A stretch of DNA of 64,000 nucleotides from NCBI GenBank assembly GCA_038323535.1, contig JBBQGZ010000001.1, forward strand, positions 992 to 64,991, in the 5' to 3' direction. Of this stretch, positions 48,759-64,000 are shown piece after piece. The position numbers were made by a program, and so were the translations under genes. Origin of the DNA: Caulobacterales bacterium. Lineage in GTDB: Bacteria; Pseudomonadota; Alphaproteobacteria; Caulobacterales; Caulobacteraceae. Each line of letters opens with the position of its first letter. The stretch's first letter is position 1. Under the pieces are notes generated by a model. The model was given only the letters and a program-made list of their open reading frames with translations. It was not told where the DNA came from and did not search any database.

Positions 48759-51700
48759 ATGGCCACCAAACACCTGAGGGGCACTTACAACGCCGGCTAC
48801 ACGCTGTCCCACGCCTACTCGTTGCTGAAAATCGACGACACCGCCGTGATCAGGGGCTCGGGCGTCTTCGCCGGCGCCCTGGCCAAGGTGTCCAATCGGG
48901 GATTGGTCCTCGCCGGGGCCGGCGGGGATGGCGGCGCTAGCCATTTTCAAGGCCGCGCGGGCGAGACGGGGATCGAGCTCTCCAAAGGCAACCGGGTGGT
49001 CAACTTCGGCACAACCGCCGGCGGCCGCGGCGGGGCCGGGTTCGGGGTTCATGGCGGCGGCTATGCCGGTGACGGCGGCGCCGGAGGCGTCGCGGTTCTC
49101 TTGGGGGCGCTGGGCTCCGTCACCAACCGCAATCTGATCGTCGGCGGGGATGGCGGCGCAGGGGGCGCCGCGGCCCGCGCGCACCAGGGCGCCGGGGGCG
49201 CCGGGGGCCAGGGCGGCGCCGGAATTTCGCTGACCAGTGGCGGCGACGCGATCAACAGTGGCGCGGTGGACGGCGGCGCCGGCGGCGCTGGCGGGTACGG
49301 CTTGCAGGGCGGCGGCGCGGGCGGAGACGGCGGCGCCGGCATCAGCCTGGGGGCCGCGGGAATCTTCACCATCTACAACGGGACGGTCACCGGCGGCCAT
49401 GGTGGAGCGGGGGGCGGCGGCCGTTTCGGGAGCGGGGGCGCGGCCGGCGGCGCGGGCGGAGCGGCCCTGACCGCCACCGCGGACGCGAGGTTGAAGAACA
49501 ACGCCGTGATCGCGGGCGGCGAAGGCGGCGCGGGCGGCGCCGGGGCCGGCAAAGGCTCCGGAGGGGTCGGGGGCATGGGCGGCCAGGGCGTCGTCCTTCG
49601 CGGCGGCGGCTACATCCTCAACAGCGCCTCGATCGTCGGCGGCAACAGCATCACCATTACCGGCGGCCGGGGCGGCGTCGGGGGCGCCGGGGGCTACGGC
49701 GGCGGCGACAGCTATCGCACGAACGGCGGATTCGGCGGCGAAGGCGGGGCGGGGATCGCCCTTGCCGGGGGCGGCGACGTGACCAACCGCTCGACCATCG
49801 AGGGCGGCGCGGGCGGCGCCGGCGGGGAAGGCGGCTCCCGCGCGGGGACCGCCGCCGGCGGCGGGCGCGGCGGTGCGGGAATCGATGTCACCCTGGTCGC
49901 GGCCAGCCTGTCCAACACCGGCCTCATCCAGGGAGGCCGAGGCGGCCTCGGCGGCGACGCCTACGGCGCTTCGACCGCGGCGGGCCATCATCAGACCGCC
50001 GGTAGCGGCGGCGGGGGCGGCGCGGGAATCTATCTTTCGGCCGGCGGCAGCCTGGTCAACAGCGGTTCTATCGTCGGGGGCGTCGGCGGGGACGGCGGCG
50101 TGGGCGCCGGCTTCGCGGGTGGCGGCGACGGCGGCGACGGCGGCGACGGCGTGGTCCTGCGGGCCGGCGCGGCGATCACCAACCGCGGTGTGATCGCCGG
50201 CGGGGCGCGCGGGGGCGGGGGGGCGAGCGGCGCGGGCGGCGCGGGCGGCTCGGCCGGCGCCCAGGGGGCCGGGGTGGTGCTCACCACCGACTGCTACCTC
50301 CTCAACGACGCGGGCGCCGTGATCACGGGCGGGACCGGGGTCTCCGTGACGGGCGCCAACGCCACGGTCACCAACTACGGCACGATCAGCGGCGGCGCCT
50401 ATTCGGTGAAGCTGAACTTCGCCAGGGATGTGCTGATCGCCGGCGCCGGCGCCCAATTCATCGGCGAGATCGCCGGGGGTGGCGGAACCTTCGAACTCAT
50501 CCGCGGCAGCGGCGTGATCAGCGGCCTGGGGGGGACCGGGGCGGTGTCGGGGACGGACTCCGCCACCTTCTCCGGGTTCGGGTCCTACGTCATCGACTCG
50601 GTCGGCTGGACCCTGGCCGGATCCAACCAGCTCTCAAAAGGCCAGAGCCTGACCGACAACGGCATCCTGACCGTCACCGGATCGCTGGGGGTGTCGGCCG
50701 GCGCGATCGTCCTGGTCGGCGCGGGCAATGACCTGACCTTCCGCGGCGGGGGAGACGTCATCGCCGGCACGCTCGGCGGCGCCGGGACGATCAGCTTCGT
50801 CGGCGTGGTCGATACTTTCAACGGGGCCAACCTCGCGGCGGCCGATCTCCAAATCAAGGATTCGACGGTGACGCTGAACGGCGCGATCACCGAGACCCGC
50901 GTCCTGACGGTCATCACCAGCACCCTGACGGTCGGCGCGGGCGGGGCGACGCTCAGAGGCGGCGGGACCATCGCGTTCGGCGACTTTGCGTCCAATCGCA
51001 TCATCGGCGCCTCGGCGGGCGACACCTTGACCAACGTCGACACCACCATCTCCGGGGCCGGGATGCTGGGTGCGGGCCAGATGACGCTGATCAACATGGC
51101 CGGCGGGGTGATCGACGGCAATGGCTCGCGGGCGTTGATCATCGACACCGGGGCGCGCAGCATCACCAACTCCGGATTGATCGAAGCCTCCGGCGCCGGC
51201 GGGGTGACCATCCAGGGCGAGATCCGAAACTCGGGCCTGCTGGAGGCGGTCGGCGGAGTTCTGACCGTGAATGGCGCGGTGAGTGGCGAGGGGAGCGGGA
51301 TCATCGCCGGCGGCGCCCTGGCCTTCAACGGGGCCTTCCACCAGGACGTCGCGTTCAGCGGCGTGTCGGGCGTGCTGCAACTGGCCGATTCCCTGAACTA
51401 CACCGGCACGGTGAGCGGCTTTTCCAAGGTCGGCGCAACCACTCTGGACCTGAGGGATATCAAGTTCGTCGATTCGAGCGAGGCGAGCTTCAGCGGCACG
51501 GGGTCCGGGGGCGTGCTCAGCATCAGCGACGGTGCGCACACCGCCAAGATCGCCCTGGCCGGCGACTACCTGGCCGCGACCTTCGTCGCGGCGAGCGACG
51601 GTCAGGGCGGCGTGACGATCATCGCCACGACCGGCGGCGCATCCGCCCCCCCGCCGAGCGCGCCGCCGCCCCATGCGCCGCCCCCTCACACCTTCATCGC

Positions 51701-51809
51701 CGCCATGGCCGGCTTCGCCGCCACCCCCGCCGGCCTCGCCCATATGGGCGCCCATGGCGACGCCGGGCGGCTGGCCACGTTGTCGGCCCCGAGGATGGCG
51801 ATGGCGTGA
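48759..51809 (+). CDS. Large glycine-rich repeat protein (PGRS-like/beta-helical), probably surface-exported
   Basis: 1016 aa; repeated N.G.I.GG.GG.GG...GG.GG.G(I/V).L units, beta-rich C-half, SDGQGGVTI, Pro-rich linker, FIAAMAGF tail; no obvious signal peptide or beta-barrel. Confidence 0.85.
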   Translation: MATKHLRGTYNAGYTLSHAYSLLKIDDTAVIRGSGVFAGALAKVSNRGLVLAGAGGDGGASHFQGRAGETGIELSKGNRVVNFGTTAGGRGGAGFGVHGGGYAGDGGAGGVAVLLGALGSVTNRNLIVGGDGGAGGAAARAHQGAGGAGGQGGAGISLTSGGDAINSGAVDGGAGGAGGYGLQGGGAGGDGGAGISLGAAGIFTIYNGTVTGGHGGAGGGGRFGSGGAAGGAGGAALTATADARLKNNAVIAGGEGGAGGAGAGKGSGGVGGMGGQGVVLRGGGYILNSASIVGGNSITITGGRGGVGGAGGYGGGDSYRTNGGFGGEGGAGIALAGGGDVTNRSTIEGGAGGAGGEGGSRAGTAAGGGRGGAGIDVTLVAASLSNTGLIQGGRGGLGGDAYGASTAAGHHQTAGSGGGGGAGIYLSAGGSLVNSGSIVGGVGGDGGVGAGFAGGGDGGDGGDGVVLRAGAAITNRGVIAGGARGGGGASGAGGAGGSAGAQGAGVVLTTDCYLLNDAGAVITGGTGVSVTGANATVTNYGTISGGAYSVKLNFARDVLIAGAGAQFIGEIAGGGGTFELIRGSGVISGLGGTGAVSGTDSATFSGFGSYVIDSVGWTLAGSNQLSKGQSLTDNGILTVTGSLGVSAGAIVLVGAGNDLTFRGGGDVIAGTLGGAGTISFVGVVDTFNGANLAAADLQIKDSTVTLNGAITETRVLTVITSTLTVGAGGATLRGGGTIAFGDFASNRIIGASAGDTLTNVDTTISGAGMLGAGQMTLINMAGGVIDGNGSRALIIDTGARSITNSGLIEASGAGGVTIQGEIRNSGLLEAVGGVLTVNGAVSGEGSGIIAGGALAFNGAFHQDVAFSGVSGVLQLADSLNYTGTVSGFSKVGATTLDLRDIKFVDSSEASFSGTGSGGVLSISDGAHTAKIALAGDYLAATFVAASDGQGGVTIIATTGGASAPPPSAPPPHAPPPHTFIAAMAGFAATPAGLAHMGAHGDAGRLATLSAPRMAMA

Positions 51810-51922: not shown

Positions 51923-53023
51923 ATGTCGAAGAGTGTTACTTTCCACGTCGGTTTACCGAAGACTGGAACGACGACTATTCAAAGATACTTGCGCGGTCAG
52001 GAGGGAAAGCTTCGCTCTCTCGGTTTCCTTTATCCAGGTCCGCGGGAGCACCCAGCGATGGGTCGAGCCAGACATACCGTGATGATGAGCGCCATGGTTC
52101 GAAAACCGACCGCCCAGTCGGAAGGCTTGGATCTGCAGGCGTGTAGGGAGGCGGTGGCGTCGGTCTTTGAGAAATTCGAGAAATCCGGCCTGGAAAATCT
52201 AATCTGGTCCTGTGAAGGGATGGCGTCCCGCGCGCGGGCCTGGGACGAAGAATACCTTGGGCAGATCTTGGACGGCTTCGATGTGCGGGTCGTATTCTTC
52301 GCCAGATACCTGGACGATTGGGTCGAGTCGCTGATCAAGGAACGCATCCGGGGCCGGAGCAAGTCGGCGGCGGAGCGGCTGTCCCAAAAGCCGCTGGCGC
52401 CGCTTTCGCCACAACCGGGCGCGGCGGAGGCCACGTCGGCCCGCGAGCGACGCAGCATGGTCGAGAAGGGCGCCAATATCGTCGATGATCTGCGGACTAT
52501 GCGGAGCAAACTGCCCTTCGCCGAGGTCGTCGTTGGATCGTTCGATACGAATCGTGAAACGGGAACCGTCGTATCGGGCGTCATGGCGGCCATGGGCATC
52601 CCGGTCGAAGGGGCCTTCCCGGACGCCGATGACGAAGCCGAGGTCAGGAACTCGACGAAATCGGACCTGTACAGCATGCTGCTCTATCACTTGATAGTGG
52701 CCGAGGCCGGAGTGGATGTCATCCGCGCCGTCGGCGCCGCGGGCAGAACCAGGGACCGCCGAGGCGTGAAGTTCGAACCGCTCAGCGGTCGCCGCTTCCG
52801 CTTCCTCTCGGACGAAGATGTAGTGCAGGCTCGCGCCTACTACGATGAGCTGCGGCGGGAATACCCCGATCTTCCGGCGCAGCCGCCGTATGTGTCCAGG
52901 CCGGCCGAAAGATACCTGCCCAGAGAGGATGGCGTGGCGGTGCTGGACTGGCTGCGGCCGGATATTTCGGACGCCACCTTCGACAAGGCGCGCGCCGCCT
53001 ATCCCGCCGATCCGAGAGCCTGA
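51923..53023 (+). CDS. Sulfotransferase-fold (P-loop) protein, array copy 1 (subtype A)
   Basis: HVGLPKTGTTTIQ (5'PSB-like), LIWSCE, FFARYLDDWVES (3'PB-like R..S). Confidence 0.75.
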   Translation: MSKSVTFHVGLPKTGTTTIQRYLRGQEGKLRSLGFLYPGPREHPAMGRARHTVMMSAMVRKPTAQSEGLDLQACREAVASVFEKFEKSGLENLIWSCEGMASRARAWDEEYLGQILDGFDVRVVFFARYLDDWVESLIKERIRGRSKSAAERLSQKPLAPLSPQPGAAEATSARERRSMVEKGANIVDDLRTMRSKLPFAEVVVGSFDTNRETGTVVSGVMAAMGIPVEGAFPDADDEAEVRNSTKSDLYSMLLYHLIVAEAGVDVIRAVGAAGRTRDRRGVKFEPLSGRRFRFLSDEDVVQARAYYDELRREYPDLPAQPPYVSRPAERYLPREDGVAVLDWLRPDISDATFDKARAAYPADPRA

Positions 53024-53138
53024 CGGGAAGGCCCGCCACGCGTCGGGCGGACGAGCGTCAAGGCCGGGAATCGGGTCTAAAGATCCGTCAGGGAATAGAT
53101 GATCGCAAATGCCGTTGTGTCGGAACCGCCCTTTGAAA

Positions 53139-53230
53139 CGCCAAGTCGCCAAGGAGCCAAGAAGACAGAACGGCGCTTCGCGCCAAGGCGTTGATTTTCA
53201 CCGGTCTCTTGGCTTCTTGGCGTCTTGGCG
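53139..53230. repeat. Inverted repeat built from three GCCAAG units per arm
   Basis: CGCCAAGTCGCCAAGGAGCCAAGA (53139-53162) and TCTTGGCTTCTTGGCGTCTTGGCG (53207-53230), 22/24 complementary. Confidence 0.8.
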
Positions 53231-53323
53231 GTTGATAGGCTCGACCGAACATCGCCGCGAGCGCCCGGTTGACGACGATTCATTTATTCCTTGACGGGCC
53301 TTAAGATCAAAGGTTGAGCTGTA

Positions 53324-54427
53324 ATGTCGAAACGCGTCACCTTTCATGTCGGGCTCCATAAGACGGGATCCTCGACCATTCAACAGTATTTGCGAGATCA
53401 CGACGAGAAGCTTCGGTCGTTCGGCTGCCTTTATCCAGGGCCGCGCGAACACGAGGCCATGAACCCGCGGAGAAACCACCCGTTGATGTTCATCGCCATG
53501 ACCCGGCTGATGACGGCCCCGTCGGAAGGCCTGGATCTGGCGGGCTGCAGGGAGGTGGTCGCGCGGGTCTTCGAGGAATTTCGCGGGTCCGATCTCGAGA
53601 ACCTGATCTGGTCCTATGAAGCGATGGCGCTCACCGCCCGCGCCTGGGATGCGGACTATCTGGAGCGGATCCTGGGCGGCGTCGATGTGCGCATCGTCTT
53701 CTTCGCCAGATACACGGACGACTGGATCGAGTCGCTCTACAAGGAACTCGTCCGGGCCCGGAGCGGCGCGCGGGCGGAAAGATTCTACGCAAAACCGATG
53801 CCGCCGATCGCGCCGCTCCCGCGGAAGGATGTGGGCTTCGGGACGCGACCGGTGGAAAGCCTGATGGAGCAGGGGGCCAGGATCGGCGACGCCCTGCGGA
53901 TCATGCGAAACAAATTGCCCTCGGCCGAAATCGTGGTTCGATCGTTCGACGCCAATCGTGAGGCGGGAAAAGTCGTATCGGGCGCCTTGGCCGCCATGGG
54001 CGTTCCGGTGGAAAGCGCCTTCCCGGACGCCGACGCCGAGGCCGGGGTCAAGAACCCGACGAAATCGGACCTCTACAGCATGCTGCTCTATCATCTGATC
54101 ATGGCGCGGGCCGGGGTGGAGGTGATCAGCGCCGTCCACGCCGCGGGCCGCAAGAGGGACCGGAAAGGTCAGAAGTTCGAACCGCTCGGCGGTCGCCGCT
54201 TCCGCTTCCTCTCCGACGAGGACGCCATCCGCGCGCGCGGTTGCTACGAAGAATTGCGCCAGGAATATCCCGACCTTCCGGCGCAGCCGCCGTTTGTATC
54301 GAAGCCAGCCGAAAGATATCTGGCCAGGGATGAAGGGGTCGCGCTGCTGGACTGGCTGCGGCCGGATATTTCGGACCCCATCTTCGACAAGGCGTGCGCG
54401 GCCTACCCGGCGGATTCGAGAGGCTGA
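53324..54427 (+). CDS. Sulfotransferase-fold protein, array copy 2 (subtype B)
   Basis: HVGLHKTGSSTIQ, LIWSYE, FFARYTDDWIES. Confidence 0.75.
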   Translation: MSKRVTFHVGLHKTGSSTIQQYLRDHDEKLRSFGCLYPGPREHEAMNPRRNHPLMFIAMTRLMTAPSEGLDLAGCREVVARVFEEFRGSDLENLIWSYEAMALTARAWDADYLERILGGVDVRIVFFARYTDDWIESLYKELVRARSGARAERFYAKPMPPIAPLPRKDVGFGTRPVESLMEQGARIGDALRIMRNKLPSAEIVVRSFDANREAGKVVSGALAAMGVPVESAFPDADAEAGVKNPTKSDLYSMLLYHLIMARAGVEVISAVHAAGRKRDRKGQKFEPLGGRRFRFLSDEDAIRARGCYEELRQEYPDLPAQPPFVSKPAERYLARDEGVALLDWLRPDISDPIFDKACAAYPADSRG

Positions 54428-54571
54428 ACGGAACGCCCGCGCCGCGGCCCTCGATCGGCCCGGACCACCGCCGCCGACCCCTTGACATGCCAGCCCGTCA
54501 AGGATCAGAACGGCCGCCGTCCCCATTTATAACTGCCTAGGAACGGGGTTCACGCCGAAGGTCGGGCCGCG

Positions 54572-55666
54572 ATGTCGAAACGTGTCACACTCCATGCGGG
54601 ACTGCCGAAGACTGGCACCACCACTATTCAAAGATACTTGCGGAGTCAGGACGAAAAACTTCGCTCCCTCGGATTCCTTTATCCAGGCGCGCGTGAGCAC
54701 GAGGCCATGCGGCCACACAAGCATCACCTGATGATCAACGCCATGGTGGGAAACGCGAAGTCCCGGTCGGAAGGCCTGGATTTGCAAGGCTGCCGGGAGG
54801 TGGTGGGGCGGGTCTTCGAGGAATTCCACCGATCCGATCTGGAAAACCTGATCTGGTCTTATGAAGGCATGGCGCTCGCGGCGCGCAATTGGGATGCCGA
54901 ATACCTGGAGCGGATCCTGGCCGGCGCCGAGGTGCGTATCGTGTTCTTCGCGAGATATGTCGACGACTGGGTCGAGTCGCTGGTCAAGGAACGGATTCGC
55001 GGCCGGCGCGGGCAGCACGCGGAGAGCCTGACCGGCAAACCGCTGACGCTGGCCCCGCTGCCGGCGGCGGCCGATGGCGAGGCGGCGCAAACGGGCCGGA
55101 GCATGCTCGAAAAGGGGGCCAAGATCGTCAAGGCCGTGCGGGTTATGCGTCACAAACTGCCCTCGGCCGAAATTGTCGCGCTTTCATTCGACGAACATCG
55201 CGGGAAGGGAAAACTCGTATCGGGCGCATTGGCGGCGATGGGGGTTCCGGAAGGGGCCTTCCCGGACGCCGATGACGAGGCCGGGGTCAAGAACCCGACG
55301 AAATCGGACCTGCACAGCATGCTGCTCTACCATCTGGTGCTGGGACGGGCCCAAGGGGAAGTCATCCACGCGGTCGGCGCCGCCGGCGCGATGCGAGACA
55401 AGCTCGGCCGCGAATACGAACCGCTCGCCGGCCGCCGCTTCCGCTTCCTCTCGGACGACAACATCATCCAGGCCCGCGGCTACTACGAAGAGCTGCGCCA
55501 GGACTATCCCGATCTGCCGGCGCAGCCGCCCTATGTCTCCAGGCCGGCCGAACGGCGCCTGTCGAGAGATGAAGGTGTCGCGGTGCTGGACTGGCTGCGG
55601 CCGGATATTTCGGACGCCGTCTTCGATGAGGCCTGCGCCGCCTACCCCGCGGATCCGCAAGCCTGA
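54572..55666 (+). CDS. Sulfotransferase-fold protein, array copy 3 (subtype C)
   Basis: HAGLPKTGTTTIQ, LIWSYE, FFARYVDDWVES. Confidence 0.75.
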   Translation: MSKRVTLHAGLPKTGTTTIQRYLRSQDEKLRSLGFLYPGAREHEAMRPHKHHLMINAMVGNAKSRSEGLDLQGCREVVGRVFEEFHRSDLENLIWSYEGMALAARNWDAEYLERILAGAEVRIVFFARYVDDWVESLVKERIRGRRGQHAESLTGKPLTLAPLPAAADGEAAQTGRSMLEKGAKIVKAVRVMRHKLPSAEIVALSFDEHRGKGKLVSGALAAMGVPEGAFPDADDEAGVKNPTKSDLHSMLLYHLVLGRAQGEVIHAVGAAGAMRDKLGREYEPLAGRRFRFLSDDNIIQARGYYEELRQDYPDLPAQPPYVSRPAERRLSRDEGVAVLDWLRPDISDAVFDEACAAYPADPQA

Positions 55667-55826
55667 CCACAGGGCCCGCGACCAGGGCGCTGGCCCCATC
55701 GCGAGGCGGCGGCGCGACCGCTTGACAGGCCGAGCAATCAGCAATCAGAACAGAGCCGGAGTTCCCCTATGACCGCGCGACGCCTAGCGTGCCGCGGAAG
55801 GGAGTCACGTCACGGATTGAGCCGCC

Positions 55827-56951
55827 ATGCCGAAGAGTGTCTGTTTTCATGTGGGCCTTCCGAAGACGGGCACCACCACTATCCAAAGATATCTAAGGGG
55901 CCAGTACGAGAAACTTCGCTCTCTGGGCTTTCTTTATCCGGGTCTAGGGGAACACCCGGCGATGCACCTGCCAAGACATACCTTGATGATGAGCGCCATG
56001 ATCGGGAAGGCGACGGCCCAGTCGGAAGTCCTGGACCTGAAGGCCTGCAGGGAGGCGATTGCGATGGTCTTCAAGAAATTTCACGAATCCGATCTGGAAA
56101 ATCTGCTTTGGTCTTGCGAAGGGATGGGGCTGACCGCGCGCATCTGGGATGCGGAATACCTGGAGAGAATCCTGGAAGGCGTCGATGTGCGCATCGTGTT
56201 CTTCGCGAGGTACGTGGACGACTGGGTCGAGTCATATGTCAAGGAACGTATCCGGGGCCGGAGCAAATCAGGAGCGGAAAGGCTTTCCAAAAAGCCGCTG
56301 CCGCCGCTTGCTCCGCTAGCGGGGGTGGCCGAGGGTTCGGCGGCCCGGTCGCGTGAAAGCGTGCTCGAGAAAGGGGCCAAGTTCACGGAAGCCTTGCGGA
56401 TCATGCGGAACAAGGCGCCCTCGGCAGAGATCGTCGTTCGATCCTTCGACGCGGATCGCGCCAAGGGAAGAGTCGTCTCCGGCGCCCTGGAGGCCATGGG
56501 CGTCCCGGTCGGAGGGAACTTTCCGGACGCCGATGATGAGGCCGGGGTCAAGAACTCGACGAAATCGGACCTGTACAGCATGCTGCTCTATCATTTGATA
56601 ACGGCGCAGGCGGGGGTGGATGTCATCCGCGCCGTCGGGGCCGCGGGCAGAACGAGGGACCGCCGGGGCGTGAAGTACGAACCGCTCGGCGACCGCCGCT
56701 TCCGCTTCCTCTCGGACGAGAATGTGATCGAGGCTCGCGGCTATTACGAAGAGCTCCGCGAGGAATATCCCGACCTTCCGGCGCAACCCCCGTTTGTATC
56801 CAGACCGGCCGAACGATACCTGCCCAGGGACGAGGGCGTCGCGGTGCTGGACTGGCTGCGGCCGGATATCTCGGACGCCACCTTCGACAAGGCGTGCGCC
56901 GCCTACCCGGCGGATCCGGGGGGGCCGAGCGGAACGCCGGCTCAGGTTTGA
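55827..56951 (+). CDS. Sulfotransferase-fold protein, array copy 4 (subtype A)
   Basis: HVGLPKTGTTTIQ, LLWSCE, FFARYVDDWVES. Confidence 0.75.
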   Translation: MPKSVCFHVGLPKTGTTTIQRYLRGQYEKLRSLGFLYPGLGEHPAMHLPRHTLMMSAMIGKATAQSEVLDLKACREAIAMVFKKFHESDLENLLWSCEGMGLTARIWDAEYLERILEGVDVRIVFFARYVDDWVESYVKERIRGRSKSGAERLSKKPLPPLAPLAGVAEGSAARSRESVLEKGAKFTEALRIMRNKAPSAEIVVRSFDADRAKGRVVSGALEAMGVPVGGNFPDADDEAGVKNSTKSDLYSMLLYHLITAQAGVDVIRAVGAAGRTRDRRGVKYEPLGDRRFRFLSDENVIEARGYYEELREEYPDLPAQPPFVSRPAERYLPRDEGVAVLDWLRPDISDATFDKACAAYPADPGGPSGTPAQV

Positions 56952-56964
56952 AGTCGGAGCTGAG

Positions 56965-57249
56965 GTGTCAAAGCGTGTCGTCTTTCATGTCGGCCTTCCC
57001 AAGACGGGAACGACGACCATTCAACACTATTTGCGGAGCCAGGATGAGAAGCTCCAATCTTTCGGCATCCTCTATCCGGGCTCCCGGGAGCACGAGGCGA
57101 TGGAGTCGCACAAACATGACCCGATGTTGAACGCGCTCGGGCCAACGTCAACGGCGGCCGGATATCGGGCGGGCGCGGCTTCTGGCGTCGCCGGCCCCTT
57201 GACACGCCAGCCCGTCGAGGATCAGAACGGCCGCCGTCCCCATTTATAA
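56965..57249 (+). pseudogene. Truncated array copy 5 (N-terminal ~57 aa only)
   Basis: VSKRVVFHVGLPKTGTTTIQHYLRSQDEKL...HDPMLNAL, then homology ends near 57135 and the frame runs into the copy 6 upstream region. Confidence 0.85.
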
Positions 57250-57288
57250 CTGCCTAGGAACGGGGTTCACGTCAAAGGTCGCGCCGCG

Positions 57289-58380
57289 ATGTCGAAGGTT
57301 GTCACATTCCACGTTGGACTTCCAAAGACTGGCACGACAACTATTCAAAAATACTTGAGGAGCCAAGACGAAAAACTTCGCTCTCTCGGAATCCTCTATC
57401 CCGGCGCGCGTGAGCACGAGGCTCTGCGTCCCCCCAAGCATTCCGTGATGATCAACGCCATGAAGGGAAGGGTGACGGCGCCGTGCGGGGGCCTCGACCT
57501 CAAGACTTGCCGGGAGGTGGTCGAGCGGGTCTTCGAGGAATTCCACAAGTCCGATCTGGAAAACCTGATCTGGTCCTGTGAAGGGATATTGCTCGCGGCG
57601 AAAATTTGGGATGCCGAATACCTGGAGCGGATTTTGGCCGGCGCCGAGGTGCGCATCGTGTTCTTCGCCAGGTACATCGACGATTGGATCGAGTCGCTGA
57701 TCAAGGAACGGATTCGCGGGAGCAGCGGGTCTCGCCAAAGTGTTTCTCCGGTGAAGCGGCTGAAGATCGCTCCGTCGCCGGACGCGGCCGACGGCGCGGC
57801 GCAAACGGGCAGGAGTGTGCTCGATCACGGCGCCAAGATCGTCAAGGCCGCGCGGGCCATGCGCGAAAAGGCGCCTTCGGCCGAGATCGTCGCCCGCTCG
57901 TTCGATGCGGATCGGGCCAAGCGGAAGCTCGTGTCCGGCGCTTTGGCGGCTATGGGGGTTCCGGAAGGCGCCTTCCCGGACGCCGATGATGAAGCCGGGG
58001 TCAAGAACCCGACGAAATCGGACCTGTACAGCATGCTGCTCTATCATTTGATAACGGCGCAGGCGGGGGTGGATGTCATCCGCGCCGTCGGGGCCGCGGG
58101 CAAAAACAGGGACCGCCGGGGCATGAAGTATGAACCGCTCGGCGACCGCCGCTTCCGCTTCCTTTCGGACGAGAATGTGATCGAGGCTCGCGGCTATTAC
58201 GAAGAGCTCCGCGAGGAATATCCCGACCTTCCAGCGCAACCCCCGTTCGTATCCAGGCCGGCCGAACGGCGCCTGCCCAGGGACGAAGGCGTCGCGGTGC
58301 TGGACTGGCTGCGGCCGGATATCTCGGACGCCACCTTCGACAAGGCGTGCGCCGCCTACCCGGCGGATCCGGGAGGCTGA
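57289..58380 (+). CDS. Sulfotransferase-fold protein, array copy 6 (C/A chimera)
   Basis: HVGLPKTGTTTIQ, LIWSCE, FFARYIDDWIES; N-half like copy 3, C-third like copy 4. Confidence 0.75.
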   Translation: MSKVVTFHVGLPKTGTTTIQKYLRSQDEKLRSLGILYPGAREHEALRPPKHSVMINAMKGRVTAPCGGLDLKTCREVVERVFEEFHKSDLENLIWSCEGILLAAKIWDAEYLERILAGAEVRIVFFARYIDDWIESLIKERIRGSSGSRQSVSPVKRLKIAPSPDAADGAAQTGRSVLDHGAKIVKAARAMREKAPSAEIVARSFDADRAKRKLVSGALAAMGVPEGAFPDADDEAGVKNPTKSDLYSMLLYHLITAQAGVDVIRAVGAAGKNRDRRGMKYEPLGDRRFRFLSDENVIEARGYYEELREEYPDLPAQPPFVSRPAERRLPRDEGVAVLDWLRPDISDATFDKACAAYPADPGG

Positions 58381-58491
58381 TTGGAACGCCCGCCACTCGC
58401 CGGCCAGGCTGGCTCAACGCCGGTGCGATGAATCGCTCGGGCGGCGACCGGCGCCGCTGATGTCGGGATTTACGTCAAGGGTCGAGCTGTA

Positions 58492-59673
58492 ATGTCGAAA
58501 CGCGTCACCTTCCATGTCGGGCTCCACAAGACGGGATCCTCGACCATTCAACAGTATTTGCGAGATCACGACGAGAAGCTTCGTTCTCATGGCATCCTCT
58601 ATCCGGGGCCGCGCGAACACGAGGTGATGAACGAGCGGGAAAGCCACCCCCTCATGTTCATCGCCATGACCCGGTTGATGACGGCCCCTTCGGCAGGCTT
58701 GGACCTGCAGGGCTGTCGGGAGGTGGTGGCGGGGGTCTTCAGGAAGTTTCACCAATCGGAATTCGAGAACCTGATTTGGTCCTATGAAGCGATGGCGCTC
58801 ACCTCCCGCGCTTGGGATGCGGACTATCTGGAAGGAATTTTGCACGGCGCCGATGTGCGCATTGTTTTCATCGCCAGATACACGGACGACTGGATCGAGT
58901 CGCTCTACAGGGAAATCATCCGGTCCCGGGCCGGCCCGCGGGCGGAAGTCTTCTACGCGCTACCGATGCCGCCGATCGCACCGCCCTCGATCGCGCCGCC
59001 CTCGAGGGCTCAGAAGGCCGCCGGGGCTCGACCGCCGGAAAGCCTGCTGGAGCAGGGCGCCAGAATGACCAAGGCCTTGCGGATCATGCGGGACAAATTG
59101 CCCTCGGCCGAAATCGTGGTTCGATCGTTCGACGCGGATCGTGAGGAGGGAAGAGTCGTCTCCGGCGCCTTGGCGGCCATGGAGGTCCCGGTGGAAAGCG
59201 CCTTTCCTGACGCCGATGAGGAGGCCGGCGTCCGCAACCCGACGAAGTCAGACCTCTACAGCATGCTGCTCTATCACCTGATAGTGGCGCGAGCCGGGGT
59301 GGATGTGATCAGCGCCGTTCACGCCGCGGGCAGAAAGAGGGATCGCAAAGGCGTGCAGTTCGAACCGTTCAGCGGCCGGCGCTTCCGTTTCCTGTCGGAT
59401 GAAGAGACGATACGGGCGCGCGGCTACTATGAGCAGCTGCGAGAGGACTACCCCACCCTTCCGGCGCAGCCGCCGTATGTCTCCAAGCCAGCCGAACGAT
59501 ACCTGCTCAGGGATGAAGGCGTCGCGCTGCTGGACTGGCTGCGGCCGGATATTTCGGACGCCATCTTCGACCAGGCGTGCGCCGCCTATCCCGCGGATCC
59601 GAAGGCTGACCGAAAACACTCACGACGACCTCCGCGACCAGGGCACAGTCAGAGTAAATTATCCGCGCGGTAA
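58492..59673 (+). CDS. Sulfotransferase-fold protein, array copy 7 (subtype B)
   Basis: HVGLHKTGSSTIQ, LIWSYE, FIARYTDDWIES; short C-terminal extension. Confidence 0.75.
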   Translation: MSKRVTFHVGLHKTGSSTIQQYLRDHDEKLRSHGILYPGPREHEVMNERESHPLMFIAMTRLMTAPSAGLDLQGCREVVAGVFRKFHQSEFENLIWSYEAMALTSRAWDADYLEGILHGADVRIVFIARYTDDWIESLYREIIRSRAGPRAEVFYALPMPPIAPPSIAPPSRAQKAAGARPPESLLEQGARMTKALRIMRDKLPSAEIVVRSFDADREEGRVVSGALAAMEVPVESAFPDADEEAGVRNPTKSDLYSMLLYHLIVARAGVDVISAVHAAGRKRDRKGVQFEPFSGRRFRFLSDEETIRARGYYEQLREDYPTLPAQPPYVSKPAERYLLRDEGVALLDWLRPDISDAIFDQACAAYPADPKADRKHSRRPPRPGHSQSKLSAR

Positions 59674-59784: not shown

Positions 59785-60684
59785 TTACTCACAGCGGTGC
59801 GTACTCCACCGCGCCTTGAATTCGGCGATTTCATGCGCGCGATAGAAATGCGTGACGGCCGGCACGTCGTAGATTGCGTTCAGGGTCGCGGCGGGAAGGT
59901 GGAAACGCTCGCGAGTCTGAACGTAGAGCGGGTAGGATCGCCGCGTCGCCGCCGTGTTTACCTCCGGCAGCGCGAAATCGGGGTCTCCCAGAAACCTCTT
60001 CGCCGCGTCGTGCAGGAGTTGGCGCGTCGATGCTTCGGATGCGATGTCTTCGGCGCGATAGACGAGCAACGCGACGCCGGGGCTGTTCAAGCACTGGGCC
60101 CCACCGCCGGACGGGAACGGCGATGAGAATATATCGAGACCGAAGACCGCTAGAAGTTCCTCGTCGAACCAGGTTCGATAGGCCCCGATCATGCGCCACG
60201 CCAGCCGCTCGAAGCTGCCGGTGGGCTCGGTCCCCGCCAGGACCCATCGCCATAGCTCGCCGAGAACCGCGCACACCGCATCGGCGCTCGCCCCGTCCTT
60301 CGCGCTGAGGCTCCCGCCTGTATGGCCGCAGAAGTCCGCCAGGAAGCTCAGAAGCGACAGCGATCGGGCGACTGGGTCGCGCATGCCCGTGATCACGCGG
60401 ATCTCCTGCCGGCGTTCGCGCGCGGCTTCGATCTGCGCAATTCCTTTCCTGCCTTTGCGCACGATATCGCGCGCAATGAGCGGGTTGACGATGGAATTGT
60501 TCTCGCGCGGAGTGGCCAGGATCGCCGCGATGGCCTGAAGATTGGCCGCGGTCAAATAGTGGGCGTGGACGGGAGCCACCCCGCCTTGTCCAGCCGCCGG
60601 CGCCGCCGCCTCGACCCAGGCGAGCGAGGCCACCTTCGCCATCTGGTGCACGACGATTAGCCTTCCGCTGCTCACGCGCGCCAC
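59785..60684 (-). CDS. Sulfotransferase-like protein (resembles the putative capsular polysaccharide synthesis/NKWYS family)
   Basis: HQMAKVAS (degenerate 5'PSB), ITGMRDPVARSLS (3'PB), WFDEEL..FGLDIF..PF. Confidence 0.65.
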   Translation of the reverse strand: MARVSSGRLIVVHQMAKVASLAWVEAAAPAAGQGGVAPVHAHYLTAANLQAIAAILATPRENNSIVNPLIARDIVRKGRKGIAQIEAARERRQEIRVITGMRDPVARSLSLLSFLADFCGHTGGSLSAKDGASADAVCAVLGELWRWVLAGTEPTGSFERLAWRMIGAYRTWFDEELLAVFGLDIFSSPFPSGGGAQCLNSPGVALLVYRAEDIASEASTRQLLHDAAKRFLGDPDFALPEVNTAATRRSYPLYVQTRERFHLPAATLNAIYDVPAVTHFYRAHEIAEFKARWSTHRCE

Positions 60685-60690
60685 CGGTCC

Positions 60691-61932
60691 TCAAACAAAG
60701 TCGGCCCAGGCGCGGGCCATGGCCGGAACACGCGTCCGCGTTTCCCAGACCACCGACCCCGGGACGAGGCGTAGGTCGGGATGGGCGAGCAGGGCGGCAA
60801 TCGCCACCTCCGACTCCATCTGGGCCAGCGCGGCGCCCAGGCAGCGATAAGCGCCATGGCCGAAGGCGAGGGAGTCCGGCCCCTCTCGGTCGATGTCGAT
60901 GGCGTCGGGATCCGGAAAGGCGGCCGGATCGCGGTTGGCGGCGCCCAGGATGATGGTGACCCGCTCGCCGGCGCGGATCGTCTCGCCGCTGAACTGGCAA
61001 TCGCGCGCGGCGATGCGAGCGACATACTGGAAGGGGGAGGCGAGACGCAGAAACTCCCGCACCGCTCCGGCCACTTTACCCGGCTCGGCGATCAGGCGCG
61101 CGCGCACGTCGCTTCGTTCCAGCAGCATGACTGCCGAGGCGGGGATGCCCGTCGCCGTCGACTCCTGGCCTCCGCTGAAAATGAATGTGAGCAAACCGGC
61201 AAGATCCCGATCACTCAATCCCAGGTCGCTGTCGCTGCGTTCCACCAGTTGCGAAAAACGGCTCTCGTCGGGTCGCGCACGGTTGCGGCCGATCTCCAGC
61301 TCAAAATAATCCAGAAGTTTGCCGGCCCGTGCTTCGGCTTGCCGCAATTCACGCAACGATCGCGGCGTCAAATCAAAGATCCAGGCTACCTCGCGGGCAG
61401 TCGCGGCCTGGGCGAGACAGTCTTCCGATGGCAAGCCGAGCAGGGTCTGGATAGTAAAAATGGCCAAGTCGCGTCCAAAACCGGCCGCCAAGTCGAGTCT
61501 TCCGACCTGGCGCGCGGCAAGCAGAAGGCCAGCGGCGCGCCGCTCGAGCCCGGCGCGAATTCCAGCCACTTCCGGGCCCTGAAAGAGGCGGGACATGAAT
61601 TTCCGCAATTGAATATGGCGCGGTGGATTGGTGAAGAAGGCGACGTTCGACAGAACGGTCCTGAGATTTGGCAGCGAGGGTCCGCCGCGTCGCTCGAGGA
61701 GATCGAAACGCGCGATCGGATCGTCGGCGAGAAAGGCCGGATCGCTCAGGACCGACAGCGCGTCGGCGTGCCGCGTCAGGACCCAACCGCCGAAATGGCG
61801 GCTCCAATGGACCGGCGCGGCCTCGCGCAGCAGCGCGTAGGTCGAGACGAGGTTGTCTGGCGCCAACTGGGCGAGAGGATCCGGACTCAGGCTGGCGCGC
61901 GTTCCGCGCACGGCGGCGGATGTGTTGGTCAC
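60691..61932 (-). CDS. Cytochrome P450
   Basis: WVLTRHAD, NPPRH, SGGQEST (I-helix), EFLR, AANRDP, FGHGAYRCLG. Confidence 0.93.
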   Translation of the reverse strand: MTNTSAAVRGTRASLSPDPLAQLAPDNLVSTYALLREAAPVHWSRHFGGWVLTRHADALSVLSDPAFLADDPIARFDLLERRGGPSLPNLRTVLSNVAFFTNPPRHIQLRKFMSRLFQGPEVAGIRAGLERRAAGLLLAARQVGRLDLAAGFGRDLAIFTIQTLLGLPSEDCLAQAATAREVAWIFDLTPRSLRELRQAEARAGKLLDYFELEIGRNRARPDESRFSQLVERSDSDLGLSDRDLAGLLTFIFSGGQESTATGIPASAVMLLERSDVRARLIAEPGKVAGAVREFLRLASPFQYVARIAARDCQFSGETIRAGERVTIILGAANRDPAAFPDPDAIDIDREGPDSLAFGHGAYRCLGAALAQMESEVAIAALLAHPDLRLVPGSVVWETRTRVPAMARAWADFV

Positions 61933-61966
61933 GGAACCGAGCCCGGCGAGGTGAGGCTTCCGACGA

Positions 61967-62248
61967 TCATGGCGCGTCGAACTCCTCGGTGGTAGCGCCT
62001 CTTCCGTCGTGCTCGACCGCAGCGACCATGGCTTCGATCGTCGGATATTGCAGGAAGGCCGCGGGATCGATCTCGAAGCTCAATTCATCCTCCAAGGCCC
62101 CGGCCATCAGCACCGCCTCGATCGAATCGAGTCCGTAGCTTTCGAGAGTCCGGTCGAGCTCCACTTCCTTTTCCGGAATGCCGAGAACCTCGGCGAGATA
62201 CCGGCGCACCCATCCTCGAAGTTCGCTGTCGGCCAGAGCCTGGTTCAT
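61967..62248 (-). CDS. Acyl carrier protein (PKS-type)
   Basis: YGLDSIEAV phosphopantetheine Ser, YPTIEAM; start overlaps the FAAL stop (ATGA). Confidence 0.92.
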   Translation of the reverse strand: MNQALADSELRGWVRRYLAEVLGIPEKEVELDRTLESYGLDSIEAVLMAGALEDELSFEIDPAAFLQYPTIEAMVAAVEHDGRGATTEEFDAP

Positions 62249-63999
62249 TCGGCGCCCCCGTTGCGGGAGGCGCCGGTCTGAGGCGCCTTGGGACGCCAGC
62301 GGCTGAGTTCCGGGTGGCGCGACTCGACCAGGGGTGGGAGCAGGCCGTTCAAATATCGCTCCCGGCAGAGATGCCGCTGCACCTTGCCGCTCGTGGTCCG
62401 TGGCAGGACGCCGGCCCGAAGCAGCACGAGGTCGTAGAGGGCCAGGCCGAAGTTCAGGCTGATGGTCTCGGCCACCCGGGCCACCACGGCGGCCGAATCG
62501 AGCGTTTTCATCGCGGCGCGCTCCACCTCATGCACGAGCACCACCTGTTCGCCGGCGGGACTGTCGAACGAGAATGCACCGCCACCGCCGTGGCTCAAAG
62601 CGGGGTGGCACCGTTCGGCGGCGACTTCCAGATCGAGCGGATCGAAGTTCGCTCCACGGACGATGATCATGTCCTTGAGCCGGCCGGTCACCACCAGCCC
62701 CTCGACTGACATGAAGCCGAGGTCCCCCGTGCGCAGCCAGCCGCCGGACCTGTCGCCGTCGCAAAGGGTCGCATCGAACATTTCCGCGGTTTCCAGCGGG
62801 CGGCGCCAATAGCCTTGGCTTATGCTCGCACTGCGAAGCCAGATCTCCCCGACCTCGCCCGGAGGCGCCGCCATGCGGCGGACCGGATCGACCACGATGA
62901 GCTCGTGACGCGGCCAGGGATGACCGCAGGAGACCAGACGGCGGGTGCGTTCCGGGCTCGCCGGCGACGCGGCGCGTCCTTCGGCCAGGCTTGGACCGTC
63001 CACGGAGCAGACGTCGAACCCGCCGCCCGCCTTCACCGAAGCCGCGAGCAGCGTGGACTCGGCCAGACCATAGGCGGGGGCCAGCGCTTCAGGTCTGAAA
63101 CCGGCCGGGGCGAAGGTTTCGGCAAACCGTTCGAGCACTTCGGGCCGAATCATCTCGCCACCGCAAACGGCTATTCGCCAGCAGGAGAGATCGAGCGACG
63201 CGCGCTGCTGCGGCGTGGTTCGGCGCTCGCAAAGATCGTAGGCGAAGACCGGACCGGCGCTCAAGGTTCCGCGATAGCGATCGATGACCTCCAGCCAGCG
63301 CGCCGGCCGCTTCAAAAACGCGACCGGGGGCATCAGGACACAACGCAGGCCCGCATAAATGGGGAAAAATCCGAAACCGAAGAGGCCCATGTCGTGATTG
63401 AAGGGCAACCAATTCACCGCCGTCTCGCCTTCCTCGACTCGGGTGGCCTTGGCCATCGCTCCAAGGTTGCTCAGCAAGTTAGCATGCGTCAGCATCACGC
63501 CGCGCGGCGTGGTGGTTGAACCGGACGTGTATTGCAGCATCGCCAGGGAATGCGGGCCAGGCAAGGTGGACGGCGAAAACTCGACTGCTTTATCAACGTC
63601 GTCCGTGGTCAAAATACTTACGCCGGCGGGCGCTTCCTCAGTCACCCGCGCGGCGAGCGCGGCGACGGTCAGCATGCCCGCGGCGGAGGAATCGATCGCC
63701 AGCGCTCGGACGCGGTCCAGCGACTGCGCGCCGGGCAGCGGCGCCACGACCGCGATGGCGCCCGCATAGAAGCAGCCGAACAACGCCGCCAGCAAGTCCA
63801 GGCCGGAAGGATAGACCAGCAGGACCGGTTCGCCACCCAGACCGTGATCCAGCACAAGCCGCGCAATCGAACGGGCGCGGCGGTCGAGCCCGGCAAAGGT
63901 GATCCTTCCGGCTTCCCGCTCGCCGTTCTCGAGCCACAGGAAGGCTTCCTCATCGGGCGCGCGCAGGGCCCGACTGTGTAGAACATCGACCAGTGACGT
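62245..63999 (-). CDS. Fatty acyl-AMP ligase (FAAL), 5' end outside the window
   Basis: Frame open to the edge (TSLVDVLHSRA...AFLWLENGE); LQYTSGST, WLPFNHDMGL, YGLAEST, FAAL-type insertion before LVSCG, WLRTGDLG, PRTTSGKVQR. Confidence 0.93.
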   Translation of the reverse strand, partial: TSLVDVLHSRALRAPDEEAFLWLENGEREAGRITFAGLDRRARSIARLVLDHGLGGEPVLLVYPSGLDLLAALFGCFYAGAIAVVAPLPGAQSLDRVRALAIDSSAAGMLTVAALAARVTEEAPAGVSILTTDDVDKAVEFSPSTLPGPHSLAMLQYTSGSTTTPRGVMLTHANLLSNLGAMAKATRVEEGETAVNWLPFNHDMGLFGFGFFPIYAGLRCVLMPPVAFLKRPARWLEVIDRYRGTLSAGPVFAYDLCERRTTPQQRASLDLSCWRIAVCGGEMIRPEVLERFAETFAPAGFRPEALAPAYGLAESTLLAASVKAGGGFDVCSVDGPSLAEGRAASPASPERTRRLVSCGHPWPRHELIVVDPVRRMAAPPGEVGEIWLRSASISQGYWRRPLETAEMFDATLCDGDRSGGWLRTGDLGFMSVEGLVVTGRLKDMIIVRGANFDPLDLEVAAERCHPALSHGGGGAFSFDSPAGEQVVLVHEVERAAMKTLDSAAVVARVAETISLNFGLALYDLVLLRAGVLPRTTSGKVQRHLCRERYLNGLLPPLVESRHPELSRWRPKAPQTGASRNGGAE

Positions 64000-64000
64000 A

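Follow-up and report, generated by a model that had tools for sequence, protein, structure and literature searches.

Which product would be made by adjacent minus-strand genes for a FAAL (fatty acyl-AMP ligase), an acyl carrier protein (ACP), a cytochrome P450 and a sulfotransferase-fold protein, located at the end of a 64,000-nucleotide stretch of Caulobacterales DNA (the whole stretch analysed, termed the window here)? We see an even chance that these genes, together with a fifth just outside the window, form a cassette for the hydroxylation and O-sulfation of an ACP-tethered acyl chain, followed by its transfer to an envelope acceptor. This reading was built on gene content, predicted folds, conserved residues, linkage and the kind of transferase present at each locus. 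Our literature search returned no description of such a cassette.

Gene content and predicted functions

The four tightly packed minus-strand genes of the original prediction were borne out by ORF calls and family matches, and the three junctions (an ATGA overlap, a 34-bp gap and a 6-bp gap) were exact on recheck. The FAAL ORF (602 aa; 62245..64000, minus strand, with its start 53 bases past the window end at G000:C1:65044) matches AMP-binding with an E-value of 1e-62, and its best NCBIfam matches are mostly FAAL families. FAAL-named families score 265-387 bits, against 315 for one long-chain-fatty-acid-CoA ligase family and at most 149 for other CoA-ligase families, all of them below curated cut-offs. 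The 15 solved-structure matches include FadD23, FadD28, FadD32 and a fatty acyl-adenylate ligase, the best being 7r7e-g, an entry named 'polyketide synthase' which we take to be the FAAL domain of Ols. By these matches, the window ligase resembles FAALs more closely than acyl-CoA ligases. The segment presumed, by its expected position, to hold the FAAL-specific insertion aligns over almost its whole length with the top solved match, yet it is short and variable in relatives.

The stand-alone ACP gene (93 aa; 61967..62248, minus strand) overlaps the FAAL stop codon, and its product matches PP-binding (E 9e-20), carries Ser42 in a GLDS motif and is acidic, with 21 D/E versus 6 K/R. FAALs load fatty acids onto ACPs, and the window FAAL likely loads its fatty acid onto its own dedicated ACP.

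The next gene (60691..61932, minus strand) encodes a P450 of 413 aa (p450 E 1e-20) with the heme Cys, the ExxR motif and the I-helix acid-alcohol pair all present; the heme Cys is found in all 21 cassette P450s shown. Oxygenation is established P450 chemistry. Among solved structures, BioI ranks first for a 17-sequence P450 profile (290 bits, versus 258 for the next), whereas with the single window P450 as query it is merely tied for first (152.6 versus 153.9 bits). The substrates of BioI are ACP-linked fatty acids, as described in excerpts of PMC10741444, and a BioI-like P450 in the cassette likely hydroxylates the ACP-tethered chain.

The last gene (59785..60684, minus strand) encodes a protein of 299 aa that matches PF10364, NKWYS (E 2e-8, 35.0 bits, exceeding the gathering cut-off of 25.1), a family whose name is neighbourhood-based and derives from capsular loci. 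Its structure model (pLDDT 95.6) was compared with 48,161 chains, and ranks 1-20 were all sulfotransferase-family proteins, the best (Z 9.8, rmsd 4.2, 205 aligned) being heparan-sulfate sulfotransferases; the Ols sulfotransferase 4gox ranked 17th (Z 7.1, rmsd 4.7, 176 aligned). Foldseek matches were weak, with a best E-value of 0.02. Among 53 aligned relatives, K17 and S20 are each conserved in 52 and fall in a gap in the last one; R102, S110, H40 and H42 are present in all 53. K17 and S20 presumably serve as the 5'PSB residues, and R102 and S110 as those of the 3'PB. Conservation thus extends to the Lys, Arg and Ser predicted to bind PAPS, and the 5'PSB-like motif, previously supposed to be degenerate, is not. 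PAPS use is established for the sulfotransferase fold, and an APS-kinase domain is present in a CysNC-type protein of this genome. The PF10364 protein is a predicted sulfotransferase, which would transfer sulfate from PAPS onto the new hydroxyl of the chain; no biochemical study of PF10364 appeared among the papers listed in our literature search. The predicted sulfotransferase-ACP complex scored 0.58, versus 0.01 for the best control, with contacts agreeing by at least 94% between runs and a partner pLDDT of at least 75. Of 157 solved pairs 116 attained the score mark, as did 2 of 215 mismatched ones, and passing scores of at most 0.60 were seen for just 18 of the 157 solved pairs plus both passing mismatches, which leaves weak support for a PF10364 protein-ACP complex.

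The cluster does extend past the window, as had been anticipated, by one further co-directional gene 58 bp upstream of the FAAL gene (minus strand, G000:C1:65103-66737, equal to L001:7104-8738). A divergent Sulfotransfer_1 gene follows it, close to the contig end. The fifth gene does not mark the locus as a known cluster of another kind, an outcome that would have undermined the proposal. It had also been stated that neither a PKS nor a thioesterase gene was visible in this part. No PKS was seen: neither contig C1 nor contig C111 gave a ketosynthase match, and none was present among the scanned neighbour ORFs of the cassette loci. A thioesterase-fold gene, in contrast, does lie just outside the window. 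Its product (544 aa) combines TPRs with an alpha/beta-hydrolase fold (Z 15.1, rmsd 3.6, 208 aligned) and is a predicted acyl-accepting protein.

In this hydrolase family the nucleophile elbow holds a Cys in 32 of 34 members, the window protein included. A triad His is found in all 24 Ser-type rows; of the 15 Cys-type rows, 14 have none close to this column, the sole exception having a His three columns off. The window protein lacks both a Ser nucleophile and a triad His, and hence a complete nucleophile-acid-His triad; with that His lost, it may be non-catalytic. By structure and features, the neighbours of the domain include a capsule O-acetyltransferase, antigen 85 proteins and Asp2-family proteins. 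Members of the family often stand alone, with a FAAL, adenylation or ACP match to our own profiles at just 5 of 20 loci read, and at L096 the family member forms a fusion with adenylation and carrier domains. Because of this fifth gene, which was invisible to the original prediction, the likely end of the pathway shifts from release to transfer: the Cys-type TPR-hydrolase protein would accept the acyl chain and hand it on to an acceptor in the cell envelope, so that a surface lipid or glycoconjugate would carry an O-sulfated hydroxy-acyl group. Cys is the nucleophile of CmaE and SyrC. In the CmaE/SyrC/LgnA shuttles (excerpts of PMC8748450) and in the Dlt ligase-carrier-MBOAT system, hydrolase-fold or MBOAT proteins likewise transfer rather than hydrolyse carrier-bound acyl groups, but these systems handle aminoacyl substrates with intact triads (the LgnA triad in the same excerpts), while the window protein has TPRs and no His.

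Recurrence of the cassette and exchange of its transferase

The cassette turns up across two phyla of uncultured bacteria (Caulobacteraceae, Rhizomicrobium, Steroidobacteraceae and Acidobacteriota), and a second copy is present in the same genome. Each of its five genes has a dN/dS of about 0.2-0.4 and, together with the recurrence of the gene set in two phyla, this argues that the cassette is not a chance arrangement. All five genes, with 5 differences, also lie on a single contig (8,130 nt) from run X1, which is possibly the source sample and hence not independent.

Scans with a sulfotransferase-fold alignment yielded 14 GTDB loci and 12 metagenome loci. An ACP adjoins all 24 close relatives of the PF10364 gene (22 distinct) and neither of the two distant ones. 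Near the close relatives, a P450 was found at 12/12 GTDB and 10/12 metagenome loci, a FAAL at 11/12 and 3/12, and a hydrolase-fold gene at 10/12 and 2/12, respectively; the missing genes correspond to contig ends, L005 excepted. Two loci (L002 and L004) each possess two P450s and two sulfotransferase-fold genes, and in L028 the second pair is broken. One genome has a split cassette (L005/L090), and another (L089) keeps only the hydrolase and ACP in 14 kb. At L003 and L020-L024 the sulfotransferase-fold gene lies on the opposite strand, next to one of the TauD family, and clusters separately from the P450, ACP and FAAL of its locus, so strict co-inheritance fails; L024 further has a Ser/His relative in place of the Cys-type hydrolase. 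The TauD-family gene, whose solved relatives include TauD, Rv3406 and AtsK, occurs at 8 of 24 loci and in the genome's second cassette copy, and is absent from the window's own copy. The distant PF10364 relatives (L014, L015) are fused to GT2 and lack the cassette, which points to glycan substrates. Frequent neighbour products are GT2/GT4/GT8 glycosyltransferases, Stf0-type and TPR-sulfotransferases, methyltransferases and surface proteins, and a sulfatase gene is present in L002. In the scanned ORFs, a selection of neighbours, we saw neither a conserved redox partner nor a conserved exporter.

Searches with the ACP profile alone revealed 9 sister FAAL-P450-ACP loci, of which two (L053 and L101) had contributed to that profile; the PF10364 profile matched at none of the nine. 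Seven carry a GT2, and two carry a carbamoyltransferase and an MBOAT without a hydrolase-family gene. One GT2 family accounts for 7 of 7 GT-type loci versus 0 of 28 loci having a PF10364 gene, and the hydrolases of the GT-type loci have Ser and His. The matches of the MBOAT include DltB, and FAAL, ACP and MBOAT together at these two loci form a Dlt-like feature. Sulfotransferases, glycosyltransferases and carbamoyltransferases can all cap hydroxyls, and their swap around FAAL-P450-ACP points to hydroxylation followed by hydroxyl capping.

Known systems and competing readings

The same chemistry could follow another timing, with the chain leaving the ACP first and the P450 and/or sulfotransferase using the free acid or the finished lipid; this we regard as unlikely. 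The caryoynencin (cay) cluster includes a FAAL. In excerpts on this cluster (PMC9322674) and on jamaicamide JamABC-type systems (PMC11837247), fatty acids are likewise tailored on a dedicated ACP, and cay has a thioesterase and a P450; unlike the cassette, they use desaturases on the ACP, encode dedicated redox partners and, in those excerpts, have no sulfotransferase. The cay P450, CayG, acts once the thioesterase has freed the ACP-bound fatty acid (PMC9322674), so ACP adjacency is no proof of tethered action. Similarly, in the mycobacterial sulfomenaquinone operon a P450 gene (Cyp128A1) neighbours a sulfotransferase gene (Stf3), and the proposal is that a free lipid is first hydroxylated and then sulfated by their products, but that lipid is menaquinone, the sulfotransferase is of a different family and the excerpted text has no FAAL, ACP or hydrolase (PMC6469627). 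The Ser-His hydrolases of the GT-type loci also suit this timing, which has to contend with BioI as the nearest relative of the P450 profile, the weakly passed complex prediction and a window hydrolase-fold protein devoid of Ser and His. Decidedly unlikely, to our minds, are two parallel decorations, as in Nod factor and sulfolipid-1, where FAAL, ACP, P450 and the hydrolase-fold protein would give a hydroxy-acyl group and the PF10364 protein would sulfate a sugar of the same surface glycan. The capsular naming of PF10364, the GT2 fusions of its distant relatives, its heparan-sulfate sulfotransferase matches, the structural and feature neighbours of the hydrolase domain and several glycosyltransferase-rich neighbourhoods all favor such a scheme, but no conserved glycosyltransferase was seen across the sulfotransferase-type loci, the ACP accompanies the PF10364 gene at all 24 loci of the close relatives, and P450 and sulfotransferase-fold genes are doubled together at two loci.

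Sulfate could instead be a leaving group, with P450 beta-hydroxylation standing in for the KS-AT-KR extension of CurM/Ols, prior to decarboxylative elimination to a 1-alkene or displacement by a nucleophile. The Ols/CurM thioesterase uses a Ser nucleophile and a His; the cassette's hydrolase-fold protein has neither residue, and no KS, AT or KR was seen. In excerpts on the Ols/CurM ST-TE (PMC11730487), a sulfotransferase similarly acts on hydroxyacyl-ACP, on a FAAL-loaded ACP, ahead of a hydrolase-fold domain, and the four fold types of Ols (FAAL, ACP, ST and TE) are all in the cassette, whose top solved FAAL match is itself named for a polyketide synthase. Unlike that system, the cassette consists of separate proteins, its hydroxyl is proposed to come from a P450, PF10364 is not an Ols-type sulfotransferase (4gox being just 17th), and the Cys hydrolase lacks a His; a GT2 or carbamoyltransferase in the slot and the double P450/sulfotransferase pairs also suit stable capping better. 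We hold this route to be very unlikely. The original prediction, ACP-tethered hydroxylation and then sulfation towards a sulfolipid or an activated leaving group, is thus strengthened in its first part by the BioI match, the sulfotransferase fold with its PAPS-type residues, the constant ACP and the transferase swap, while its leaving-group branch is disfavoured by the hydrolase-fold protein without Ser and His. Least probable of all, we believe, is oxidative chain cleavage, or a catabolic, sulfur-recycling role in which the sulfotransferase-fold gene and TauD would handle sulfate esters. BioI itself cleaves a C-C bond, C7-C8, for biotin, on the housekeeping ACP, and some relatives are automatically named 'pimeloyl-ACP synthase'; the TauD-family genes and the sulfatase would fit sulfur recycling. 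The cassette, in contrast to BioI, has a dedicated FAAL, ACP and capping transferase, FAAL-to-ACP loading is a biosynthetic logic, the window's own copy has no TauD, and no biotin-pathway family was present among the scanned selection of neighbour ORFs.

A possible wider platform

If tethered hydroxylation, sulfation and transfer hold true, PF10364, a family with merely a neighbourhood-based name, would gain a biochemical role, sulfated fatty acyl groups would have a PKS-free route, and the cassette P450s would be candidate carrier-dependent, regioselective fatty acid hydroxylases. With sulfotransferase, glycosyltransferase and carbamoyltransferase naturally exchanged around one FAAL-P450-ACP core, five proteins allow a direct test of the order in which tethered tailoring proceeds and of its specificity. 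We further suggest, as a rather doubtful possibility, that this core belongs to an undescribed modular platform for cell-surface decoration, with an interchangeable cap (PF10364 sulfate, GT2 sugar or carbamoyl) and an interchangeable off-loader (His-less Cys TPR-hydrolase, Ser-His TPR-hydrolase or MBOAT). PF10364 proteins would then be acyl-ACP sulfotransferases of a new class, and the His-less Cys domain would form an acyltransferase class of its own, with surface proteins that are secreted, or the glycans on them, as possible acceptors. A sulfated acyl chain, its role unknown, has also been predicted for the swf cluster of sponge symbionts, which in the excerpted text relies on a type I PKS/FAS with a reductase-sulfotransferase and has no FAAL or P450; according to the same source, routine saponification-based analysis can miss alkyl sulfates (PMC3908369).

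Organisation and conservation of the cassette

The original prediction of four minus-strand ORFs, joined by an ATGA overlap and by junctions of 34 bp and 6 bp, was reproduced in the window sequence. Their products are an AMP-binding enzyme (window 62245 to beyond 64000), whose best family matches are mostly FAAL families, an ACP (61967-62248), a P450 (60691-61932) and a PF10364 (NKWYS) protein (59785-60684). The cluster was also expected to run past the window end, and indeed the sequence there completes the FAAL at 602 aa and contains a co-directional fifth gene of 544 aa on the same minus strand, 58 bp upstream of the FAAL (C1:65103-66737). Upstream of the cassette lies a divergent Sulfotransfer_1 gene on the plus strand (positions 9630-10379 of L001, the cassette with its flank on G000:C1 past the window), with no counterpart in the other GTDB cassette loci.

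The source genome (G000; 2.6 Mb, 77%-complete, window at G000:C1:992-64991), whose named close relatives belong to Caulobacteraceae, holds a second copy of the cassette on contig C111 (L016, C111:3720-7627), comprising a FAAL truncated by the contig end, an ACP, a P450 and a PF10364 gene, with a TauD-family dioxygenase gene between the ACP and the P450. All five cassette genes show dN/dS values of ~0.2-0.4 (seven pairs computed). Promoter and terminator scans gave signals no higher than shuffled sequence, and no ketosynthase match was found on contigs C1 or C111; no ACPS-family match was found in G000 either, a genome only 77%-complete, so that absence does not follow.

Scanning with the PF10364 alignment yielded 14 loci from GTDB (15 of 69 pattern matches confirmed) and 12 from metagenomes (out of 91 matches). 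The GTDB set includes twelve close loci, with identities of 41-66%, whose hosts are Caulobacteraceae, Rhizomicrobium, Steroidobacteraceae, Acidobacteriota and one unassigned alphaproteobacterium. The ACP adjoins the PF10364 gene in all 24 close loci (22 distinct, L026 being a repeat of L008 and L029 of L028). Among close GTDB and metagenome loci, respectively, the P450 is present in 12/12 and 10/12, the FAAL in 11/12 and 3/12, and the hydrolase-family gene in 10/12 and 2/12; missing genes correspond to contig ends in all cases but L005, whose genome has a hydrolase-FAAL pair on another contig. Two loci (L002 and L004) possess two P450s and two PF10364 genes each, and a TauD-family gene occurs in 8 of the 24. 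The cassette is real and conserved. It is also rare, since close P450 orthologues were found in just 3 of the 400 genomes searched within the family, at 4 scored candidates per genome, and the ACP, as a single query, had no match in 400 class-wide genomes. A plasmid collection yielded one distant match for the PF10364 gene and none for the hydrolase domain of the fifth protein. DUF6473 recurs beside the cassette in L003, L012, L021 and L022, accompanied by Stf0-type sulfotransferase genes in three of the four.

The PF10364 protein and the P450

The 5'PSB motif of the PF10364 protein had been suspected of being degenerate, a worry contradicted by its alignment, in which all 53 rows keep H40, H42, R102 and S110, and all but one (52) keep K17 and S20. 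We take K17/S20, H40/H42 and R102/S110 to correspond to the 5'PSB Lys, the catalytic His region and the 3'PB Arg/Ser. The structural model is confident (pLDDT 95.6, 53-sequence alignment), and sulfotransferase-family entries occupy ranks 1-20 when it is compared with 48,161 solved chains (best match: Z 9.8, rmsd 4.2, 205 aligned), with kinases ranking lower. The Foldseek ranking agrees with the sulfotransferase family, with weak E-values and no match at 0.001 or better, and the alignment had no meaningful match among solved-structure sequences. A CysNC-type protein encoded in G000 could supply PAPS.

The window P450 retains the heme Cys, the ExxR motif and the acid-alcohol pair. As a single-sequence query it finds 2z3t and BioI tied, and a 17-sequence profile places BioI first, 32 bits ahead; BioI oxidises ACP-linked fatty acids (PMC10741444). 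In a tree built with FastTree (the program also used for the PF10364 protein tree), the 21 cassette P450s cluster together with good support, and the P450s of the sister loci described below fall outside it, in a tree that carried long-branch warnings.

Sister loci and the fifth protein

Matches to an ACP profile came from three sets of genomes: 8 out of the 390 others in the window's family, 5 out of 195 additional ones from the L007 family, and 1 out of 195 from the L009 order. Ten matches lay outside the profile-building set (L005 and L010 among them being loci already known), with a P450 in nine and a FAAL in eight of the same loci. Nine loci in all combine FAAL, P450 and ACP without a PF10364 gene; "sister" here denotes common architecture and related ACPs, common descent not being implied. 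Seven contain a Ser-His hydrolase and a GT2 protein of one family (46-79% identity), and their frequent neighbours are genes for methyltransferases, polysaccharide pyruvyl transferases or surface proteins. The other two contain a carbamoyltransferase, an MBOAT protein and a tandem double-P450, with no hydrolase-family gene. A search of 28 PF10364 loci gave 0 with the sister-type GT2 family, and the PF10364 profile matched 0 of the nine sister loci, counts that come from related, non-independent genomes and represent a pattern, not a statistic. This pattern fits a scheme in which a P450-made hydroxyl is capped by the transferase occupying the slot and an off-loader transfers the chain.

The FAAL-P450-ACP-GT2-hydrolase cassettes (L053, L101, L129-L133), whose extras vary among O-methyltransferases, polysaccharide pyruvyl transferases and PhyH-family dioxygenases, are a candidate glycolipid pathway. 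The other type (L119:5673-14341 and L120:5234-13767) consists of a FAAL, a tandem double-P450 fusion, an ACP, the carbamoyltransferase, the MBOAT protein and a protein with a hydrophobic start, a layout resembling Dlt.

In the fifth protein, TPR repeats precede a domain for which no Pfam family was found, and a solved-structure search with the alignment of this domain gave TPR-region matches only, among the 60 matches listed. The model (pLDDT 87.7) adopts an alpha/beta-hydrolase fold, matching MPT51 (Z 15.1, rmsd 3.6, 208 aligned), with antigen 85A and esterases nearly tied and a capsule O-acetyltransferase also among the matches (Z 14.0). Of 34 aligned relatives, 32 have Cys at the nucleophile position. 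Across 40 hydrolase-family domains (24 Ser-type, 15 Cys-type, one Ala), the triad His is found in all 24 Ser-type rows and is missing from 14 of the 15 Cys-type rows. A Cys nucleophile without the triad His makes an ordinary thioesterase unlikely, leaving two candidates: a transferase that accepts the acyl group, or a binding protein devoid of catalysis.

Many family members stand alone, a profile search giving a ligase or ACP match in 5 of 20 loci examined; those of L091-L095 and L107, Ser-His members occurring alone or in tandem, share a common neighbourhood with no ligase or ACP match. In L096 (G009:C5:1856000-1875000) the family is fused with adenylation and carrier domains in two proteins of differing domain order, which adjoin a GT2-sulfotransferase fusion and an autotransporter gene. 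A second unit in L028 (8117-12364) encodes an AMP-binding enzyme, a carrier protein and a Cys-type, His-less TPR-hydrolase whose tree position is outside the main Cys group.

Candidate mechanism, alternatives and neighbouring genes

The most likely pathway, to which we give roughly an even chance, is one in which the FAAL would charge the ACP with a fatty acid, the P450 would hydroxylate the tethered chain, the PF10364 protein would sulfate the new hydroxyl, and the Cys-type TPR protein would take over the acyl group for delivery to a lipid or glycan of the envelope or to a surface protein. A predicted complex of the PF10364 protein with the ACP scored 0.58 against 0.01 for the best control, with at least 94% of contacts agreeing between runs and partner pLDDT of at least 75. 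Of the 157 solved complexes, 116 reach the mark applied, as do 2 of the 215 mismatches, but passing scores at 0.60 or under come from only 18 of the 157, plus both passing mismatches; the prediction raises the odds of this pathway only slightly. Tailoring only after release from the ACP, for which CayG offers a precedent (PMC9322674), is unlikely.

Several findings count against the tethered pathway: the two distant GTDB loci are GT2 fusions of PF10364 without the cassette; the PF10364 genes of L003 and L020-L024 are encoded, together with TauD, on the other strand and cluster separately from their partner genes; cassettes are split or reduced in two genomes; the scanned ORFs included no redox partner or exporter that is conserved; and the fifth protein may be inactive. 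That the PF10364 protein sulfates a sugar, in parallel with acylation, is distinctly improbable. Sulfate serving as a leaving group in the manner of Ols (PMC11730487) is very unlikely, and BioI-like cleavage or sulfur recycling is the least probable of the alternatives.

By analogy, the cassette may act like a blend of Ols, in which sulfation occurs on an ACP, of Cyp128A1-Stf3, in which a P450 and then a sulfotransferase act on a lipid (PMC6469627), and of stand-alone FAAL-ACP tailoring (PMC11837247). The cassette is not a member of the Ols/CurM family: no KS-AT-KR was seen, with no ketosynthase match on C1 or C111, and no Ser-His thioesterase. No published description of the cassette was found in a literature search of openly accessible papers. 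In the main text of a 2025 FAAL review "P450" occurs 0 times (PMC11837247); the sole P450/sulfotransferase cyanobacterial cluster mentioned (PMC8406957) has no adjoining carrier protein; and the PKS macrolactone with P450s and a Stf3-like enzyme (PMC7081687) is a different system. Each step has precedent; what appears to be undescribed, in the literature searched, is their combination, the link to PF10364 and the swappable slot.

Downstream of the cassette operon and facing it is a plus-strand tandem array (window 51923-59673) of six paralogues of 363-393 aa, 65-81% identical to the last one, with a fragment near 56965-57162 and a seventh paralogue on contig C29. These have a sulfotransferase-like P-loop at the protein start, and four give weak sulfotransferase Pfam scores (E 0.002-0.14). 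The array was set aside because profile comparison shows no relationship with the PF10364 protein (probability 0.3%) and because, save for weak matches in L028 and L101, it does not recur alongside the cassette. Another plus-strand gene (48759-51809) encodes a Gly-rich protein of 1016 aa with no Pfam match and with matches on >10 contigs, a possible surface acceptor; related proteins are encoded beside L002 and beside the second copy of the cassette as well. A second window P450 (35482-36348, minus strand), with a Pfam match over its C-terminal part only, is possibly split or starts further upstream. Elsewhere in the genome, L018 (G000:C63:328-12000) encodes an AMP-binding enzyme, a class I/II aminotransferase, a CDP-alcohol phosphatidyltransferase, an ABC transporter, LptF/G, an ACP and a ketosynthase, a gene set that we take to resemble a sphingolipid-type locus.
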